Sequence record: MH051913
DNA: 64,000 nt
Direction: 5' to 3' (one strand)
Origin: Enterobacteria phage vB_EcoM_IME281
Below are positions 45,257 to 51,277 of the stretch, one piece after another; positions within the stretch are counted from its first letter, which is position 1, and the number at the start of each line of letters is the position of its first letter. The notes beneath the pieces are model-generated. The model saw only the letters and a list, made by a program, of their open reading frames with translations, was not told the DNA's origin and did not search any database. Made by a program: the position numbers and the translations under genes.

Positions 45257-45578
45257 TTTATCTGATTTAGATAATTTTGTTAAAGACACTGAAGAGGGTC
45301 CTAGTGACCCTCGTTATTATGAGAAATCGTTAGATATAATCCGTAAGTCAATGGGTTCGGTTAAGCAGGAAATTATGCTTACTTTACCCGATGGCACTGC
45401 TCACATCGTTTATGTGATGAATATTGTTATTGAGAAAGATGGAAAAGTGTCGGTTGATTTCGGAACGCCTTCCGAAGACCGAAAAGAAGAGCTAGCGCTT
45501 CATGTAGAAAAATGTGTTACAATGCAAATACAAGAAGAACTGGATAAAATTAAATCTAAGAGGTGGTGGAAGTGGTAG
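45249..45578 (+). CDS. hypothetical protein (position of T4 gene 40)
   Basis: 109-aa ORF between uvsX and 41. Confidence 0.5.
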   Translation: MTDLSDLDNFVKDTEEGPSDPRYYEKSLDIIRKSMGSVKQEIMLTLPDGTAHIVYVMNIVIEKDGKVSVDFGTPSEDRKEELALHVEKCVTMQIQEELDKIKSKRWWKW

Positions 45579-47002
45579 AAACTATTTTGGCTCAACTGCT
45601 AGGCAATAGTGATTATTTCACTAAGGTCTGGCCTTATATGAATGATTCTTATTTTGACCAGGGTCCGGCAAAGACCCTTTTCAAAGAAATCAAAAAACAT
45701 GTCAATGAATATAATGCGGTGCCTTCTAAAAATGCTTTGAGTATTGCATTAGATAACAGCACCCTTTCAGAAGTTGAACATCAAGGAGCTAAAGAGCTTT
45801 TAAATTCTCTGAATGCAGGCCCTGAAGACCAAGAATGGTTGGTTAAAGAGACAGAGAAATATGTTCAGAAGGCAGCGATGTATAATGCCACTTCAAAAAT
45901 TATTGAAATTCAAACTAATGCAGACCTTCCGGTTGAGCAACAAAATAGAAAACTCCCAGGTATTGGTGCTATTCCAGATATCATGCGTGATGCATTATCG
46001 ATTTGTTTCGATTCTGAATTAGGCCACGACTGGATGGATGACTATGAAGAACGTTTTAAAAGTTATTCTGATAAAGCCTGTAAGGTTCCATTCCGTCTTA
46101 ATATTCTGAACAAGATTACTAAGGGTGGCGCTGAGTTTGGTACTGAAAACGTATTGTTGGCAGGAACAAACGTAGGTAAGTCTCTTGGACTGTGTTCATT
46201 GGCTGCTGATTACCTTCAATCAGGTTATGATGTTCTTTATATCTCCATGGAGATGGCAGAGGAAGTATGTGCTAAGCGTATCGATGCTAACCTTCTGGAT
46301 GTATCACTGGATGATATCGATGATGGTCACGTCTCATGGCCTGAATATAAAGCTAAGATGGATAAGTGGCGTTCAACTGCTACTTTAGGTCGTTTAAAGA
46401 TTAAACAGTACCCTACTGGTGGTGCTAATGCCGATACATTCCGTGCATTATTAAACGAATACAAGCTCAAACAAAACTTTGTCCCACAGGTCGTTATCGT
46501 CGACTACCTGGCCATCTGTGCATCTTCTCGTACGAAAGTTTTCTCTGAAAACAGTTACGGATTGATTAAGATGGTTGCTGAAGAACTACGTGGGCTTGCA
46601 GTAGAGAAGAAATTATTGCTGTGGACGGCAGCCCAGACTACTCGTGGTGCGAACGTTGCAGCCGAAATCGATATGGCCGATATTGCTGAATCTTTTGGTA
46701 TTGCACATACTGCAGACTTCATGTTAGGTGTGGTCGAGACAGAAGAGTTTGCTCAGATGGGTATGCAAATGGTTAAGCAGCTTAAATCTCGTTATGGTGA
46801 TAAGAGCTACTACAACAAATTTAAGATTGGTGTTAAGAAAGGAAACCAGCGTTGGTATGAAGTTGAAGACGATTCCAACCCAGGCCCTGTGAACACCGTT
46901 CGTGAGGCTACAGGTGAAATGAATCGCCAAGCTGAAGTCAATCGCCAGACACGTGTTAATAGAAGTGATTTAGACGATTTAGCAGCATCTATCAAATTTT
47001 AA
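45563..47002 (+). CDS. 41: replicative DNA helicase gp41 (DnaB-like)
   Basis: Walker A GTNVGKS, LYISMEMAEEVCAKRIDANLLDV; collinear with T4 gp41. Confidence 0.95.
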   Translation: MVEVVETILAQLLGNSDYFTKVWPYMNDSYFDQGPAKTLFKEIKKHVNEYNAVPSKNALSIALDNSTLSEVEHQGAKELLNSLNAGPEDQEWLVKETEKYVQKAAMYNATSKIIEIQTNADLPVEQQNRKLPGIGAIPDIMRDALSICFDSELGHDWMDDYEERFKSYSDKACKVPFRLNILNKITKGGAEFGTENVLLAGTNVGKSLGLCSLAADYLQSGYDVLYISMEMAEEVCAKRIDANLLDVSLDDIDDGHVSWPEYKAKMDKWRSTATLGRLKIKQYPTGGANADTFRALLNEYKLKQNFVPQVVIVDYLAICASSRTKVFSENSYGLIKMVAEELRGLAVEKKLLLWTAAQTTRGANVAAEIDMADIAESFGIAHTADFMLGVVETEEFAQMGMQMVKQLKSRYGDKSYYNKFKIGVKKGNQRWYEVEDDSNPGPVNTVREATGEMNRQAEVNRQTRVNRSDLDDLAASIKF

Positions 47003-47025
47003 GGAGCTTCGGCTCCTTTTTGTTT
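47002..47025 (+). terminator. intrinsic terminator after gene 41
   Basis: AGGAGC-UUCG-GCTCCT then TTTTTGTTTT. Confidence 0.75.
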
Positions 47026-47030
47026 TAAGG

Positions 47031-47079
47031 GTTTACATCTCCTATAGGCATGATACTATAGACCTATCAACTTGGAGAA
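47031..47079 (+). promoter_or_regulatory. early promoter cassette (PeSL-like)
   Basis: GTTTAC-N17-TACTAT-AGACCTATCAA. Confidence 0.7.
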
Positions 47080-47083
47080 CAAA

Positions 47084-47401
47084 ATGAAAACTATCGATTG
47101 TAAAGCAGAACATAAAGTGTATTACCACGGAAGTTGTAGTGATGCTAATATTGGTAATATGCTTTGTCCTCCTGAGGAAACAGGAGTTCTGTCTGAAACT
47201 GGTCGTAAGAAAAACCTGAATCGTGTATTCTTTACTGAGGATATTGGTTTGGCTAAGATTTATGCTGGACGAGCTGCTCGTTCAGTGGGAGGAGAACCTC
47301 GTCTTTATCGTGTAATTGCTCCGGTAGATGTGGTTTGTTTAAATGATACTAAAGGCGCTACGGTATATCATGCCGAATGGGCCTTCTGTGAGGAAATCTA
47401 A
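47084..47401 (+). CDS. hypothetical protein with H-G-S motif (possible minimal ART-like fold)
   Basis: ATG at 47084 downstream of early promoter cassette (track start 47072 is TTG); YYHGS...FFTED...AEWAFCEE. Confidence 0.5.
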   Translation: MKTIDCKAEHKVYYHGSCSDANIGNMLCPPEETGVLSETGRKKNLNRVFFTEDIGLAKIYAGRAARSVGGEPRLYRVIAPVDVVCLNDTKGATVYHAEWAFCEEI

Positions 47402-47605
47402 ATGTTTAAATTAGAGATCGTAGTGTTTATTGGTTGGTTTGAAAATGGTAATATGTTTACCAAAGAAACTGCGCTGGATGTTAGTGACCAAAAAATGATT
47501 GAATGGGTTACAGTGCAGTATGCAGAAGTGAATAATGCACTGGTGAAAGCCTTTGTTAATGACAATAAAGTTTTTGAATATGATGCCCGCATTGAGGAAA
47601 TCTAA
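47402..47605 (+). CDS. hypothetical protein
   Basis: 67-aa ORF; preceded by GAGGAAATCTAAATG junction repeat. Confidence 0.45.
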   Translation: MFKLEIVVFIGWFENGNMFTKETALDVSDQKMIEWVTVQYAEVNNALVKAFVNDNKVFEYDARIEEI

Positions 47606-47746
47606 ATGGAAGAAGTAGAATGTGTAGTGTGCGGCTGTTCAGTTTGTGAAGACGAAGCCGTTTTTGACGCGTATGATAATGCGACTTGTTTAGACTGTGA
47701 CAGTGAATTCGAAGAAATTGCTCATAAACATGAAGACGAGGAATAA
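47606..47746 (+). CDS. hypothetical small Cys-rich acidic protein
   Basis: 46-codon ORF CVVCGCSVCED...CLDCD; same junction repeat upstream. Confidence 0.4.
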   Translation: MEEVECVVCGCSVCEDEAVFDAYDNATCLDCDSEFEEIAHKHEDEE

Positions 47747-48043
47747 ATGAATATTCAAATTATGAAGCCTGTTAAAAGTGGCTTTTGGGACCGGTCTTTC
47801 GGTAAGCATAAGATTTATGCAGATCGTATTAACAGTCGCTGGGAACTTGTCCTTTCTCAGGAAACTAAAGGCGAAATGGATTTTGTAGAGTTCTACGAAT
47901 TCGATGTTCGTCCTACTAAGCGCCAGATTCGTCAGTGCAAAAAAGCTTTTCGTGCTTATGTTGGTGGTGAGGTTCTCCGTCGTCAACGTCGTCTGATAAT
48001 GGAATCACAGTTAGTAACTTTAGATTACGCTAAAGTAAAATAA
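47747..48043 (+). CDS. hypothetical basic protein (RPTKRQ-motif paralog A)
   Basis: 98 aa; shares VRPTKRQIRQCKKAFRAY with ORF 48832. Confidence 0.5.
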   Translation: MNIQIMKPVKSGFWDRSFGKHKIYADRINSRWELVLSQETKGEMDFVEFYEFDVRPTKRQIRQCKKAFRAYVGGEVLRRQRRLIMESQLVTLDYAKVK

Positions 48044-48045
48044 GT

Positions 48046-48098
48046 GTTTACAACGGTCTATGGTAGTGATACTATAGACCTATCAACTAATGAGGAGT
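48046..48098 (+). promoter_or_regulatory. early promoter cassette (PeSL-like)
   Basis: GTTTAC-N18-TACTAT-AGACCTATCAACTAATGAGGAG. Confidence 0.7.
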
Positions 48099-48103
48099 TA
48101 AAA

Positions 48104-48397
48104 ATGAAAAAGTTATTAATCGCAGCAATCCTTACAGTAGCATCATGTGGCACAGCTCCAGTTACAGCTGGGTTGGATAAAGACCTTTGTGAATGGTCTA
48201 TGACTGCAGACCAAGAATCAGTTGAACATCAGATTTATGCTGATATCATGAACATCACTAAACGTGACCGTCCTGATATGGTTAAAGAAGTATCCGACCA
48301 ATTGGCTTCTAGCGGTGTTATGCAGTATAACTATGTTCTGTACTGTGATGCTAATTTCGATAACAAAAATATCGTTAAAGAGGTGACAGGTGAATAA
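48104..48397 (+). CDS. secreted/lipoprotein, spackle-like by size and position
   Basis: Signal peptide with lipobox-like VASC; 97 aa; lies in the 41-61 interval where T4 sp is. Confidence 0.5.
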   Translation: MKKLLIAAILTVASCGTAPVTAGLDKDLCEWSMTADQESVEHQIYADIMNITKRDRPDMVKEVSDQLASSGVMQYNYVLYCDANFDNKNIVKEVTGE

Positions 48398-48830
48398 GAT
48401 TAACAGAAATTTGGTTATCAAAAAACTTCGTTGTAAAAATCCAAATGCCCAGGCATACAGAATGTATTGGAGCGACGACCATCAATACCTGGGTTATTTT
48501 ATTGTTGATAGCGATGATAGGATTGTATTTGCCCATAAACTTCTTAATAGAGAATTAAACCACTGGCAAGAACTTATTGCTGTTAAGTCTAAATTATTTT
48601 CGCGCAATACAATACACCAATTGGTTTATTTTTTCGCTGATGGTTTTCCTGACAAGGTTGAATTTGAAGGATTCGAATTTAAAGATATCCTCCCGGACAA
48701 TGAATTTAACGACTGCGTTAATATGGATATCCCTAGCAAGTATATCAAAAACAGTCTGTTGAAAATTCTGGAAGCTCCGGTTTATTCAATCGACGACCAG
48801 ATTTTTAATGCCTTTATGAATCGAGGTTGA
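48390..48830 (+). CDS. hypothetical protein
   Basis: 146-aa ORF. Confidence 0.5.
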   Translation: MNKINRNLVIKKLRCKNPNAQAYRMYWSDDHQYLGYFIVDSDDRIVFAHKLLNRELNHWQELIAVKSKLFSRNTIHQLVYFFADGFPDKVEFEGFEFKDILPDNEFNDCVNMDIPSKYIKNSLLKILEAPVYSIDDQIFNAFMNRG

Positions 48831-48831
48831 T

Positions 48832-49053
48832 ATGTTTGTTTTAACTCAATTCTCTAAAGCGGTATATGGTTACTCTTGTCAGTGGGAAGTCTTTATTGAT
48901 TCTCCTTCACCTAAGTATGGTGTTTTTGGACGAGTAACTACTCAAGCTTATGTTGCACGGCCAACTAAGCGCCAGCTTCGTAAACTTAAAAAGGCCCATC
49001 GTCAACTGATTAAAAGAAGGGAACAATATGAGTGCAATGTGTACGGGCTCTAA
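48832..49053 (+). CDS. hypothetical basic protein (RPTKRQ-motif paralog B)
   Basis: 73 aa; VARPTKRQLRKLKKAHRQ. Confidence 0.5.
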   Translation: MFVLTQFSKAVYGYSCQWEVFIDSPSPKYGVFGRVTTQAYVARPTKRQLRKLKKAHRQLIKRREQYECNVYGL

Positions 49054-49219
49054 GATTTCTGTATTCGAGTTGTTCGAAGAATATGAAATCGTATCAAAAG
49101 ACCAAGAAGCTATCCATGTTATTGCTGATGATGGTGTGACCTGGATTATCCCACTTTACCACGAAGATACGTACGAAGTCACTGACGCCAACGGTGACAA
49201 AGCTATTTTCGTAATATAA
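49028..49219 (+). CDS. hypothetical acidic protein
   Basis: 63-aa ORF. Confidence 0.45.
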   Translation: MSAMCTGSKISVFELFEEYEIVSKDQEAIHVIADDGVTWIIPLYHEDTYEVTDANGDKAIFVI

Positions 49220-49222
49220 ATA
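49215..49222 (+). promoter_or_regulatory. late promoter
   Basis: Exact TATAAATA upstream of small ORF 49236. Confidence 0.5.
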
Positions 49223-49235
49223 AGGCCAGGAGCCT

Positions 49236-49397
49236 ATGAAATCTTTTAAAGAAGTTATGAACGAAGATATGGTCGCAGGCGATGCTGGTGGAAATCCATC
49301 TAATATTGCCTCCGGAACTACCTCAGGCGCAGTCGTCAACAAAGGGCCTGAACAAATCCCATCTAAAAAGCGTAAAGAAAAATCCGAAAACGAATGA
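49236..49397 (+). CDS. hypothetical small protein downstream of a late promoter
   Basis: 53-codon ORF with AGGAG SD, TATAAATA 14 nt upstream of SD. Confidence 0.4.
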   Translation: MKSFKEVMNEDMVAGDAGGNPSNIASGTTSGAVVNKGPEQIPSKKRKEKSENE

Positions 49398-49435
49398 TAT
49401 AATGGCTCTATTAATTTAGAGCCCAAGGAAAAATA

Positions 49436-50464
49436 ATGTCATATGTCGATAGAGAATTTGCTGTACGTGCCTTGAATTACCAACCTAAATTCAGACAAGT
49501 AACTGGTAGTGATTTTAAATTAAATTGTCGTTGTCGTGTATGCGGTGACTCCCAAAAGGATGAGAACAAAGCTCGTTTTTGGGCCTATCCGGCCAATGAC
49601 GGTTCCATTATGTTGCATTGTTTTAACTGCGACTATTCAGCAGGAATTAAGAAGTACCTATATGAATATGAGCCTGATTTATATCGCGAATATATTCTTG
49701 AGAAACATAAAGAGCAATCGTTCGGGAGACAAGCTGCACCTAAGGTGGAGATATCTGAAAAAATTAAAGCTAAGATGCCTGTCATCGAAAAGCTTAATTT
49801 CTGCGAACGATTAGATAGAATGCCGAAGGACCATCCTATTATCAAATATGTGACGCTGCGTTGCATTCCTGAAAATAAATGGAATCGACTATGGTTTACT
49901 AAAGAATGGCCTGCATTGGTTAACTCAGTTAATCCAGGGACCTATTCTAAAGAAATGCCTGAGCCTCGTTTGGTTATTCCTATTTTCAATAAGGATAAAC
50001 AAATAGAAAGTTTCCAGGGTCGAGCTTTACGTAAAGATGCTCCACAAAAATATATTACAATAAAAGCTCATGACCAAGCTACAAAAATATATGGAATGGA
50101 TACGGTTGATGAACGTCAATTGGTATGGGTTATGGAAGGACCGATTGATTCTTTATTTGTCCCTAATGCCATAGCAATTACTGGCGGGTCTTTGGACTTG
50201 GCTATGGTTCCATGTAAAGAAACTCGTGCTTGGGTAATGGACAATGAACCCCGTCATCCTGACACAATTAAGCGTATGCAACGATTAGTTGATGCCGGCG
50301 AAAGGGTCCTATTCTGGGACAAGGCTCCATGGCCTTCTAAAGATATAAATGATATGGTTATGAAAGATAAAGCTGATATAAATGATATATTGGCGTATAT
50401 GAAAGCTAATATAGCCCAAGGTCTAATGGCAAAAATGAGGCTTTCAAAATATTCTAAAATTTAG
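49436..50464 (+). CDS. 61: DNA primase gp61
   Basis: Zn-finger CRCRVCGDSQKDENKARFW...CFNCDY; 342 aa as T4 gp61. Confidence 0.93.
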   Translation: MSYVDREFAVRALNYQPKFRQVTGSDFKLNCRCRVCGDSQKDENKARFWAYPANDGSIMLHCFNCDYSAGIKKYLYEYEPDLYREYILEKHKEQSFGRQAAPKVEISEKIKAKMPVIEKLNFCERLDRMPKDHPIIKYVTLRCIPENKWNRLWFTKEWPALVNSVNPGTYSKEMPEPRLVIPIFNKDKQIESFQGRALRKDAPQKYITIKAHDQATKIYGMDTVDERQLVWVMEGPIDSLFVPNAIAITGGSLDLAMVPCKETRAWVMDNEPRHPDTIKRMQRLVDAGERVLFWDKAPWPSKDINDMVMKDKADINDILAYMKANIAQGLMAKMRLSKYSKI

Positions 50465-50661
50465 ACAGGAACTCCGCTAAAGAATCCAATTATGCTTAAT
50501 ACGTGTTCCATTGTAACCGCTGGTAAAATTACCCCTTGGCTAGCGGCTACAGGAACTACTAAAAGATTCCAAAGGAATACGTCTAGCGCAAGAAAACCTA
50601 ACATCATTTTCTTGTCTTTCTTTTCAGCCAATTTCCAGATTTGGTAAAAAATACTACCCAT
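50461..50661 (-). CDS. hypothetical small membrane protein (minus strand)
   Basis: 66-aa ORF, strong AGGAGG SD 6 nt upstream on minus strand, lies in otherwise noncoding gap. Confidence 0.5.
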   Translation of the reverse strand: MGSIFYQIWKLAEKKDKKMMLGFLALDVFLWNLLVVPVAASQGVILPAVTMEHVLSIIGFFSGVPV

Positions 50662-50755
50662 GTTATCCTCCTGTTAAATTAATATTTATTCGCTTTAATC
50701 TAGCAGTTTATAATTATCTAACTTACTAACAAATGAATTGATAAGGAAAAATATA

Positions 50756-51277
50756 ATGGCTCATTTTAATGAATGTTCTCAACTGATTGCCGGTGCCGAT
50801 AAAGCTGAAGAAGCTTATTTTAATGCTCTGATTCACGAAGATAAAGACCCTCTGCAGGTTATGCTTGATATGCAGAAATCTTTGCAGGTTCGTTTAGCTA
50901 AAGATAAGCCTGAATATAATCGTCATCCTGATGATTTGGCCACTGCGGGTGAAGTTGTCGATTGGCTTCGCAACCAGAAAGATTATATTGATGACGAATT
51001 CCGTGAACTTATGACTTCTCTTGGTGGTATGAGCAATGGTGAAAAAGATGCATCTGCAGTATGGAAGCCTTGGAAAGCTCAACATGCTGAACGTCGTGAA
51101 ACCCTGATTAACGATTTGTCTCCTGAAGACCAGCTCGAAATTAAATTCGAAATGATTGATATTCTGCACTTTGTTCTGAATATGTTCCAGGGTCTTGGAC
51201 TGACCGCTGAAGAAATCTTTAAACTGTATTACCTGAAAAATGCCGAGAACTTTGCTCGTCAAGACCGAGGTTATTAA
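50756..51277 (+). CDS. 56: dCTP pyrophosphatase gp56
   Basis: 173 aa collinear with T4 gp56 (MAHFNEC...DPLQVMLDMQ...EIFKLYYLKN.ENFARQDRGY). Confidence 0.93.
   Translation: MAHFNECSQLIAGADKAEEAYFNALIHEDKDPLQVMLDMQKSLQVRLAKDKPEYNRHPDDLATAGEVVDWLRNQKDYIDDEFRELMTSLGGMSNGEKDASAVWKPWKAQHAERRETLINDLSPEDQLEIKFEMIDILHFVLNMFQGLGLTAEEIFKLYYLKNAENFARQDRGY

Follow-up and report, generated by a model that had tools for sequence, protein, structure and literature searches.

The best described counterpart of the locus analysed here is the interval between helicase gene 41 and primase gene 61 of phage T4, which Srikant et al. regarded as a likely 'anti-TA island' (TA, toxin-antitoxin) carrying dmd, tifA and adfA (PMC9391042). 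The functions of Dmd, TifA (61.4) and AdfA (61.2) in this island have been shown experimentally (PMC9391042, PMC11257639): gene 61.4 is tifA and encodes a ToxN inhibitor, the T4 dmd-tifA unit is driven by an early promoter (PMC9391042), and AdfA acts by binding DarT1 (PMC11257639). A second, computed system was described by Iyer et al. 2022 (Viruses 14:1977; PMC9503650), who paired a p0068-family ADP-ribosyltransferase (ART) with Dmd of enterophages as a putative toxin-antitoxin pair and speculated on RNA targets. Here we analyse the 41-61 interval in a 64,000-nucleotide stretch of DNA from Enterobacteria phage vB_EcoM_IME281 (MH051913; hereafter the window, to which all positions refer). We conclude, with a probability of roughly 60%, that this interval is the Dhakavirus version of the T-even anti-toxin-antitoxin and exclusion island, and that its first gene, ORF1, encodes an autonomous early effector that uses NAD+.

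The island between genes 41 and 61

Over its 2.45 kb the interval shows 97% identity to that of Escherichia phage EcWhh-1 and 90-94% to those of JS98, IME08, WG01 and other Dhakavirus, placing the source phage among the JS98-like T-even coliphages of this group (Dhakavirus; Straboviridae, Tevenvirinae). It is flanked by the gp41 helicase (45563-47002) and the gp61 primase (49436-50464), with uvsX and gene 40 further upstream, and this layout matches the T4 gene order uvsX-40-41-dmd-61.4-sp-61.2-61.1-61. An earlier annotation made from the letters alone (the sequence-only reading) had stated that the T4 interval holds dmd, sp and the 61.x genes, which the T4 order bears out, and had counted nine small open reading frames (ORFs) here. 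All nine were recovered at or next to the positions it gave; they lie on the + strand and fill the interval with almost no spacers:

47084-47401, +: ORF1, minimal ART-fold protein, 105 aa (JS98 gp034 / RB69 orf040c family; phrog_2110)
47402-47605, +: Dmd, 67 aa (Pfam Dmd, PF17587; T4 Dmd identity; PDB 5i8j/5hy3)
47606-47746, +: putative zinc-ribbon protein, 46 aa (phrog_13952, 1.9e-29)
47747-48043, +: ORF4, TifA (gp61.4) homologue 1, 98 aa (Pfam DUF7279, 2e-16)
48104-48397, +: Spackle (Sp), 97 aa (Pfam T4_Spackle, PF25676, 1.6e-42)
48390-48830, +: ORF6, 146 aa, GTG start, in the AdfA (gp61.2) slot (phrog_8539)
48832-49053, +: TifA/DUF7279 paralogue 2, 73 aa (Pfam DUF7279, 9.5e-19)
49028-49219, +: ORF8, acidic, 63 aa, RB69 orf033c family (phrog_3249, 5.9e-34; annotated in JS98 and EcWhh-1)
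49236-49397, +: gp61.1, 53 aa (81% identity to T4 gp61.1)

Each ORF falls in a PHROG family of its own (E 1e-25 to 1e-91), and JS98, EcWhh-1 and AnYang conserve all nine, most of them as annotated genes; they are therefore real genes and not chance ORFs. All genes of the cluster are orthologous to ones already catalogued in JS98-like phages, and an Rfam scan of 46900-50800 returned no RNA families. The sequence-only reading had the ORFs, their motifs, a spackle-like protein and an ART-like fold right, and failed to recognise Dmd, the two TifA copies and the AdfA-tailed protein.

Four transcription signals were read in and just upstream of the cluster:

47001-47018, +: stem of an intrinsic terminator after gp41, GGAGC-TTCG-GCTCC, with a T run to 47028 (from the sequence)
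47032-47059, +: early-type sigma-70 promoter before ORF1-dmd-Zn-tifA, TTTACA-N16-TG-n-TACTAT (consensus match)
48047-48075, +: early-type promoter before sp, TTTACA-N17-TG-n-TACTAT (consensus match)
49215-49222, +: T4-type late promoter consensus TATAAATA (direct sequence reading)

The hexamers of the two early-type promoters are identical, and the one before sp is conserved in T4, JS98 and EcWhh-1. The late element stands 14 nt before the start codon (ATG) of gp61.1, the 53-aa ORF to which the sequence-only reading had assigned a late promoter; the terminator and the early-type promoters were absent from that reading. In the arrangement we propose, the first early promoter would drive a unit of ART, Dmd, zinc ribbon and TifA, the second would drive Sp, ORF6, the second TifA copy and ORF8, and the late promoter would serve 61.1, the last gene. 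The island would be a block of small early genes, each disabling one weapon of the host or of a rival phage.

Orthology assigns predicted functions to several of these genes. ORF 47402-47605 is identified by sequence comparison as Dmd, an antitoxin mimic that would block the RnlA and LsoA RNases: it scores 72 bits against Pfam Dmd (5e-20; cut-off 27), is 58% identical to T4 Dmd and matches PDB 5i8j at 2e-21. The Dmd of WG01 is only 51% identical despite flanking DNA that is ~90% identical, and fDHCT2 has two dmd copies; this divergence of alleles fits replacement in an arms race with RnlA/LsoA-type toxins. The two TifA homologues score 60.1 and 67.5 bits against DUF7279 (cut-off 24.5), are 38% (47747-48043) and 35% (48832-49053) identical to T4 gp61.4 and 35% identical to each other, and share the basic cluster RPTKRQ[IL]R..KKA.R. 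Since both ORFs belong to DUF7279 and gene 61.4 is tifA, the phage carries two TifA paralogues, which by orthology would block ToxN-type RNases. The first copy retains the T4-like C-terminal extension (…QLVTLDYAKVK); EcWhh-1 has TAG for the CAG of the window and JS98 a 48-nt deletion, and the extension is therefore repeatedly being lost among close relatives.

ORF 48104-48397, which had been noted as a spackle-like signal-peptide protein of 97 aa, is by all sequence comparisons a true Spackle orthologue. It scores 144.5 bits against the Pfam model (cut-off 27), is 69% identical to T4 Sp over 97/97 residues, matches PDB 6x6o at 1.7e-40, carries the signal peptide MKKLLIAAILTVASCGTAPVTA and follows 61.4 in the same synteny as in T4. 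The solved mature chain, 7cn6, aligns to residues 23-97. By orthology it would enter the periplasm and inhibit the gp5 tail lysozyme of superinfecting phages, and so act in superinfection exclusion. A lipobox-like string, LTVASC, raised the question of a lipoprotein; this was rejected because T4 Sp has the same string and its solved mature chain begins at residue 23. The last gene product, gp61.1, is 53-54 aa in this phage and in T4. Other T4-like phages encode at this site a protein of 150-164 aa, of which the short form matches just the C-terminal ~45 residues (80% identity over residues 111-155 in the case of a 164-aa homologue, L015:6455-6949), and the TATAAATA promoter stands directly before the short form.

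Fold, active site and family of ORF1

In a fold search ORF1 scored highest with Tpt1/KptA (9ld3; 8.3, 2.0 A over 75 residues, 23% identity) and Arr, the rifampin ADP-ribosyltransferase (9iaf; 7.6), followed by the anti-CRISPR ART AcrIF11 (6.8), diphtheria toxin (6.1), PARP15 (5.4) and DarT1 (4.8). Foldseek on viral models retrieved a phage protein named 'Ms Rifampin ADP-ribosyl transferase' at 35% identity and TM 0.71-0.79. The predicted structure has the split beta-sheet of ARTs, it lies nearer to Arr and Tpt1 than to the classical toxins, and the ART fold, which the sequence-only reading had suspected, is established as far as prediction allows. All weak sequence matches of ORF1 are to Arr: a single-sequence PDB search gave Arr (2hw2/9iaf) at a marginal E of 0.7, the alignments cover the N-terminal part of Arr only (Pfam Arr-ms 1-59 of 99, NCBIfam 3-62 of 131, Arr-ms residues 14-72 of 143), and relatives of ORF1 reach 24-31 bits against the Arr Pfam model. 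Because the sequence links to solved structures are marginal, the ART call rests on the fold search and on the relatives that pass the Arr-ms model. In GenBank some homologues are named 'putative ADP-ribosyl transferase'.

A profile search of 1.84 billion representatives yielded 244 ORF1-type proteins, many of them long and multidomain, and conservation of the active site was counted in 109 aligned ORF1-type domains clustered at 50% identity. Invariant or nearly so are H15, G16, [TS]17, P29-P30, E38, R41, F49, T51, A57, Y60, A61, G69-G70 and G91. H15 and G16 occur in 109/109 domains, position 17 is T in 96 and S in 13, F49 is found in 107/109 (Y in the other 2) and Y60 in 108/109, with a spacing of exactly 11 (F49-x10-Y60); the first aromatic of the pair is Phe, not Tyr. 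An H-G-[ST] motif in strand 1 together with aromatics 11 apart is the NAD+-contacting signature of diphtheria-toxin/PARP-type ARTs. In the Arr-ms alignment H15 falls on H19 and F49 on Y49, and an E-x-G-R loop is held in common. The motifs that the sequence-only reading had picked out (Y13-Y14-H15-G16-S17, F49-F50-T51-E52-D53 and Y60) are all present. Its H-Y-E assignment stood for the histidine and the aromatic pair, the Tyr it had noted being the second aromatic, Y60, and fell for the glutamate, the acid near strand 5 being unconserved. The family looks closer to the H-H-h clade of Iyer et al., and also resembles PARPs without the glutamate. The H-H-h clade includes RNA-repair and small-molecule-modifying enzymes (Iyer et al. 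2022, PMC9503650).

ORF1 belongs to a close family of 120 clusters at 90% identity, present in 608 phage records whose hosts include Klebsiella (116), Acinetobacter (68) and Aeromonas (62). In comparisons of this phage with Acinetobacter phages, ART identity is 68-75%, as against 55-58% for gp41 and 53-60% for gp61. Few accessory genes would be expected to be so strongly constrained, which suggests that the target is conserved. ORF1-type domains are also reused in larger proteins. One lies within a lambda-type portal protein and is followed by a 2H phosphoesterase domain (P0185), and others lie within 500-3900-aa proteins that also carry ART-PolyVal, NUDIX, GNAT, Toprim, CHAP or LPD23. The fusion sets among P0185, P0145, P0163, P0147 and P0209 are portal with 2H, ART-PolyVal with NUDIX, GNAT with Toprim, CHAP, and LPD23; the presence of 2H and NUDIX brings to mind enzymes acting on ADP-ribose phosphate products. 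Polyvalent-protein and head-fusion architectures such as these have been read as effectors injected with the DNA (Iyer et al. 2017).

ORF1, Dmd and the rival explanations

ORF1 is most likely the p0068-family ART, an equation made from the published description, which fits ORF1 and Dmd exactly. Since Iyer et al. 2022 described the ART-Dmd pair already, novelty of the ART prediction itself is ruled out. Their model translates here into a type II toxin-antitoxin system, in which the ART would be a toxin, perhaps acting on RNA, and Dmd would neutralise it besides RnlA/LsoA. In the window the two genes are adjacent, the ART stop (47401) abutting the Dmd start (47402), and a single promoter (47032-47059) would transcribe both. 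Adjacency alone carries little weight, because abutting or overlapping start and stop codons occur at the other gene junctions of the interval too. Linkage was surveyed in 65 IMG/VR loci with an ORF1 homologue and in annotated regions from four distant genera, Dmd being sought by tblastn and with an iterated profile built from close relatives. Dmd lies directly downstream of the ART in 10/65 loci, all of them from E. coli phages whose ART shares at least 87% identity with ORF1, and the iterated profile found none within 4 kb of the ART in the other 55, a search that a very divergent Dmd could escape. The ART occupies the 41-61 slot in 17 loci, yet 8/17, all from enterobacterial phages, have no Dmd nearby, and in these eight the zinc-ribbon ORF or other small ORFs come after the ART.

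The distribution of the two families points the same way. Dmd was found by tblastn in 797 phage records, almost all from Escherichia, Shigella, Yersinia and Salmonella; Klebsiella, Acinetobacter and Aeromonas, which are hosts of ART phages, are absent from the ten most frequent host groups listed for Dmd, and the two host ranges are largely different. At least about 380 Escherichia phage records carry Dmd without the ART, as does the T4 41-61 interval. Pfam scans of the genes immediately beside the ART in Slopekvirus, Lazarusvirus, Ishigurovirus and Bragavirus gave neither Dmd nor a macro, NADAR or any other informative domain, and no macro, NADAR or ARH-type reversal enzyme adjoins the ART. 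When all neighbours within 2.5 kb were clustered across 69 loci, none was constant across genera; those that recur best (c9 upstream, c5 and c6 downstream, Rnl2 nearby) occur only within the Slopekvirus/Karamvirus/Aeromonas group. Co-occurrence of ART and Dmd is thus not conserved, and because Dmd stands beside the ART in few loci and their hosts differ, we regard the adjacency as lineage-specific and not as an obligate module. The linkage data weaken the toxin-antitoxin model and argue against an obligate ART-Dmd pair; we consider such a system unlikely here.

Two other gene arrangements around the ART deserve mention. The 46-aa ORF at 47606-47746, which is acidic and has six Cys in the pattern CxxCxCxxC...CxxC, stands directly after the ART in four phage loci that have no Dmd there (L017, L022, L024, L025), and is a possible alternative partner worth examining. 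In Slopekvirus/Karamvirus-like and Aeromonas phages (L005, L026-L029, L033-L035, L046, L051, L059) the ART forms part of a different conserved block, in which an unannotated 250-300-aa protein comes first, the ART and small ORFs follow, and an annotated sigma-70 decoy comes last. The decoy annotation is that of Miro gp119, which gave no Pfam match here, and an Rnl2 RNA ligase lies further downstream in the Slopekvirus/Karamvirus-like loci.

We favour a model in which ORF1 is an autonomous early NAD+-using effector. It would be autonomous because Dmd rarely adjoins the ART, the hosts differ and no neighbour is constant. The strong constraint on the ART and its reuse as a domain of larger proteins also favour this model. 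The early-type promoter directly upstream of ORF1 supports an early role, and both with this promoter and in the injected-type fusions elsewhere the ART would be on hand from the outset of infection. We envision that ORF1 is produced within minutes of infection and that it binds NAD+ with H15-G16-S17 and the aromatic pair F49/Y60; the ADP-ribose would then pass to a target that is conserved throughout the Gammaproteobacteria. The analysis shows the gene identities, the fold, the conserved motifs, the promoter motifs and the patterns of distribution and linkage, and from there catalysis, the use of NAD+, early timing, the nature of the target and any anti-defence role of ORF1 and ORF6 are inferred.

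Several points weigh against this model. ORF1 itself reaches only 17.5 bits against Pfam Arr-ms (PF12120; E 0.0047, cut-off 25) and 16.1 bits against NCBIfam Arr (NF033144; E 0.007, cut-off 130), and its family profile found no PDB sequence at E <= 10. The promoters are consensus matches only, and our literature search found no experimental study of an ORF1-type ART, including those of Dhakavirus and Mosigvirus. The abutting ART and Dmd codons in this phage and its close relatives are the very arrangement that Iyer et al. read as a toxin-antitoxin pair, the reach of the Dmd searches was noted above, and small overlapping ORFs downstream of the ART in other genera (45-58 aa) could be non-homologous antitoxins. 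For ORF6, homology to AdfA beyond a shared tail is statistically weak (P about 0.002-0.004). Finally, the strand-5 E/D/Q of the H-Y-[EDQ] clade is not conserved: the position of Arr D84 (N87/D88 in ORF1) is D in 31, K in 14, A in 11 and N in 9 of the 109 domains, and no acidic residue C-terminal of G70 is invariant among them, so that ORF1 could be a weak enzyme or no enzyme at all.

This last point leads to the alternative that ORF1 is a catalytically dead ART fold, acting as a sponge or decoy for NAD+, ADP-ribose or an ADP-ribose-derived immune signal, or as a binder of a host protein. Besides the missing acid, its very small size and the Phe in place of Tyr as first aromatic speak for this, and small ligand-sequestering proteins are an established phage strategy. 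However, H-G-[ST] and the aromatic pair are invariant, as are E38 and R41 of the Arr-like E-x-G-R, which suggests chemistry over binding; the NUDIX and 2H phosphoesterase fusions suggest that products containing ADP-ribose are generated; and activity is retained in ARTs that lack the acidic residue, such as the H-Y-I PARPs and the H-H-h clade. We regard a dead fold as doubtful. Far less probable still is that ORF1 is a genuine orthologue of Arr and protects the infected cell by ADP-ribosylating rifamycin-like antibiotics. Arr supplies the sole named sequence matches of ORF1, and Arr-family ARTs of actinophages are discussed by Iyer et al. (PMC9503650), but 16 bits against 130 is far under the equivalog cut-off, the N-terminal part of Arr alone is matched by a protein shorter than Arr, and Tpt1 fits the structure at least as well. 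A lytic cycle of 25 minutes would, moreover, presumably gain little from antibiotic resistance.

ORF6, AdfA and known systems

The sixth gene of the interval raises a separate question of kinship. ORF6 begins with a GTG that overlaps the end of sp (in JS98, an ATG three codons later), and its family is narrow, with 37 clusters from Dhakavirus and relatives. ORF6 ends in 14 residues, SIDDQIFNAFMNRG, that match the C-terminus of T4 gp61.2 (AdfA) with 100% identity; BLAST found no similarity between the two proteins outside this tail. The 14 tail codons differ at five synonymous and zero non-synonymous positions, and because the DNA differences are only synonymous, the tail peptide itself is under selection. 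Depending on the phage, the slot after sp is filled either by AdfA (219 aa) or by a member of the ORF6 family (146 aa). The Pfam AdfA model (PF23813) gives ORF6 16.1 bits against a cut-off of 27, through residues 132-146 and profile positions 197-211 only. In hhalign the probability is 97.4% with the tail and 5-16% without it (P = 0.0017 for the C-terminal half of AdfA and 0.0044 for the N-terminal half). ORF6 was accordingly not filed as AdfA, the tail-less probability not being significant. The two halves of AdfA (T4 gp61.2, L004:2633-3259) align with each other in hhalign (P = 0.0004) through [FI]VK[ND]N.I, which suggests an internal duplication. The AF2 model of ORF6 has a beta-rich body (1-99, pLDDT 80-90) and a low-confidence helical tail, and Foldseek of this model in BFVD found only unnamed phage proteins of 118, 157 and 212 aa at 23-24% identity. 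With moderate confidence, we read these alignments to mean that AdfA is a tandem two-module protein and that ORF6 is probably a one-module relative of this DarT-binding protein with the same tail. That ORF6 inhibits a DarT-type toxin is a conjecture.

These considerations can be combined into a more specific proposal, which we offer as a speculation with low odds of holding in all its parts. ORF1 would be an unusually conserved minimal ART with a non-canonical site (H-G-S, F-x10-Y, E38/R41, no strand-5 acid) that, in the manner of Tpt1 and Arr, its closest relatives in structure, ADP-ribosylates a phosphate or hydroxyl of a non-protein substrate and so provides T4-like phages of many hosts with an early counter-defence; the substrate could be the end of an RNA or DNA molecule, or a small molecule that signals in immunity. 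ORF6 would be related to AdfA through a single module, its conserved tail serving as a shared docking peptide and its swapped body being retargeted to another DarT-type toxin.

Beyond the interval, between gp61 and gp56, the - strand carries a hydrophobic ORF of 66 aa (50461-50661). It is annotated as hypothetical in EcWhh-1 and has no Pfam match, the local GC skew changes sign there, and T4 carries dam at that position.

The published experiments make the T-even 41-61 interval a counter-defence hotspot, which makes good candidates of all its uncharacterised genes. The most attractive is the ORF1 ART, which is found in more than 600 sequenced T4-like phages from Escherichia, Klebsiella, Acinetobacter, Aeromonas and further hosts, is more conserved than the adjacent helicase and primase, and is reused as a module. 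Its substrate, once found, would extend the T-even set of Alt, ModA and ModB to four ARTs, the new one belonging to another clade, and would also settle the idea of an ART-Dmd toxin-antitoxin pair. The tail shared by ORF6 and AdfA may bear on the evolution of anti-DarT specificity. There is nothing unusual about the orthologues Sp, Dmd, TifA and gp61.1, and the ART fold had already been predicted in the literature; what we add is confirmation of the fold, the invariant residues, the missing strand-5 acid, the case against an obligate ART-Dmd pair, the conservation and fusion contexts of the ART, and the relation of ORF6 to the AdfA tail.

Compared with the known enzymes of its fold, ORF1 is distinct from each. 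Arr is about 140 aa against 105 aa for ORF1, the equivalent of its D84 is unconserved in the ORF1 family, and ORF1 itself is under every curated Arr cut-off. Tpt1/KptA (9ld3, 7kw9) has a two-lobe architecture that ORF1 does not share. The N-terminal RNA lobe of Tpt1 carries its Arg-His-Arg-Arg catalytic tetrad, and this lobe cannot exist in ORF1 because 105 aa leave no room for a second domain. AcrIF11 (6kyf) is 19% identical, with no sequence-level relation to ORF1, and is narrowly distributed, whereas the ORF1 family is spread across Straboviridae. The p0068-family ART and Dmd of Iyer et al. come from the same phage groups in the same order, ART then Dmd, with an ART fold that was likewise computed; the likeness is one of description, and our linkage survey does not support an obligate toxin-antitoxin relation.

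The closest likeness of the locus as a whole is to the T4 island, with the same position between 41 and 61, the same order of dmd, tifA (61.4), sp and 61.1, and a shared early promoter before sp. To this plan the present phage adds the ART, the zinc-ribbon ORF, a second TifA paralogue and ORF8, and in place of the 208-aa AdfA it has a 146-aa protein whose similarity is unambiguous in the tail only. That protein, ORF6, occupies the same slot after sp as T4 gp61.2; its body aligns weakly, in register, to both halves of AdfA, and it is about the size of one AdfA half, with a 17-residue insert, SKYIKNSLLKILEAPVY.

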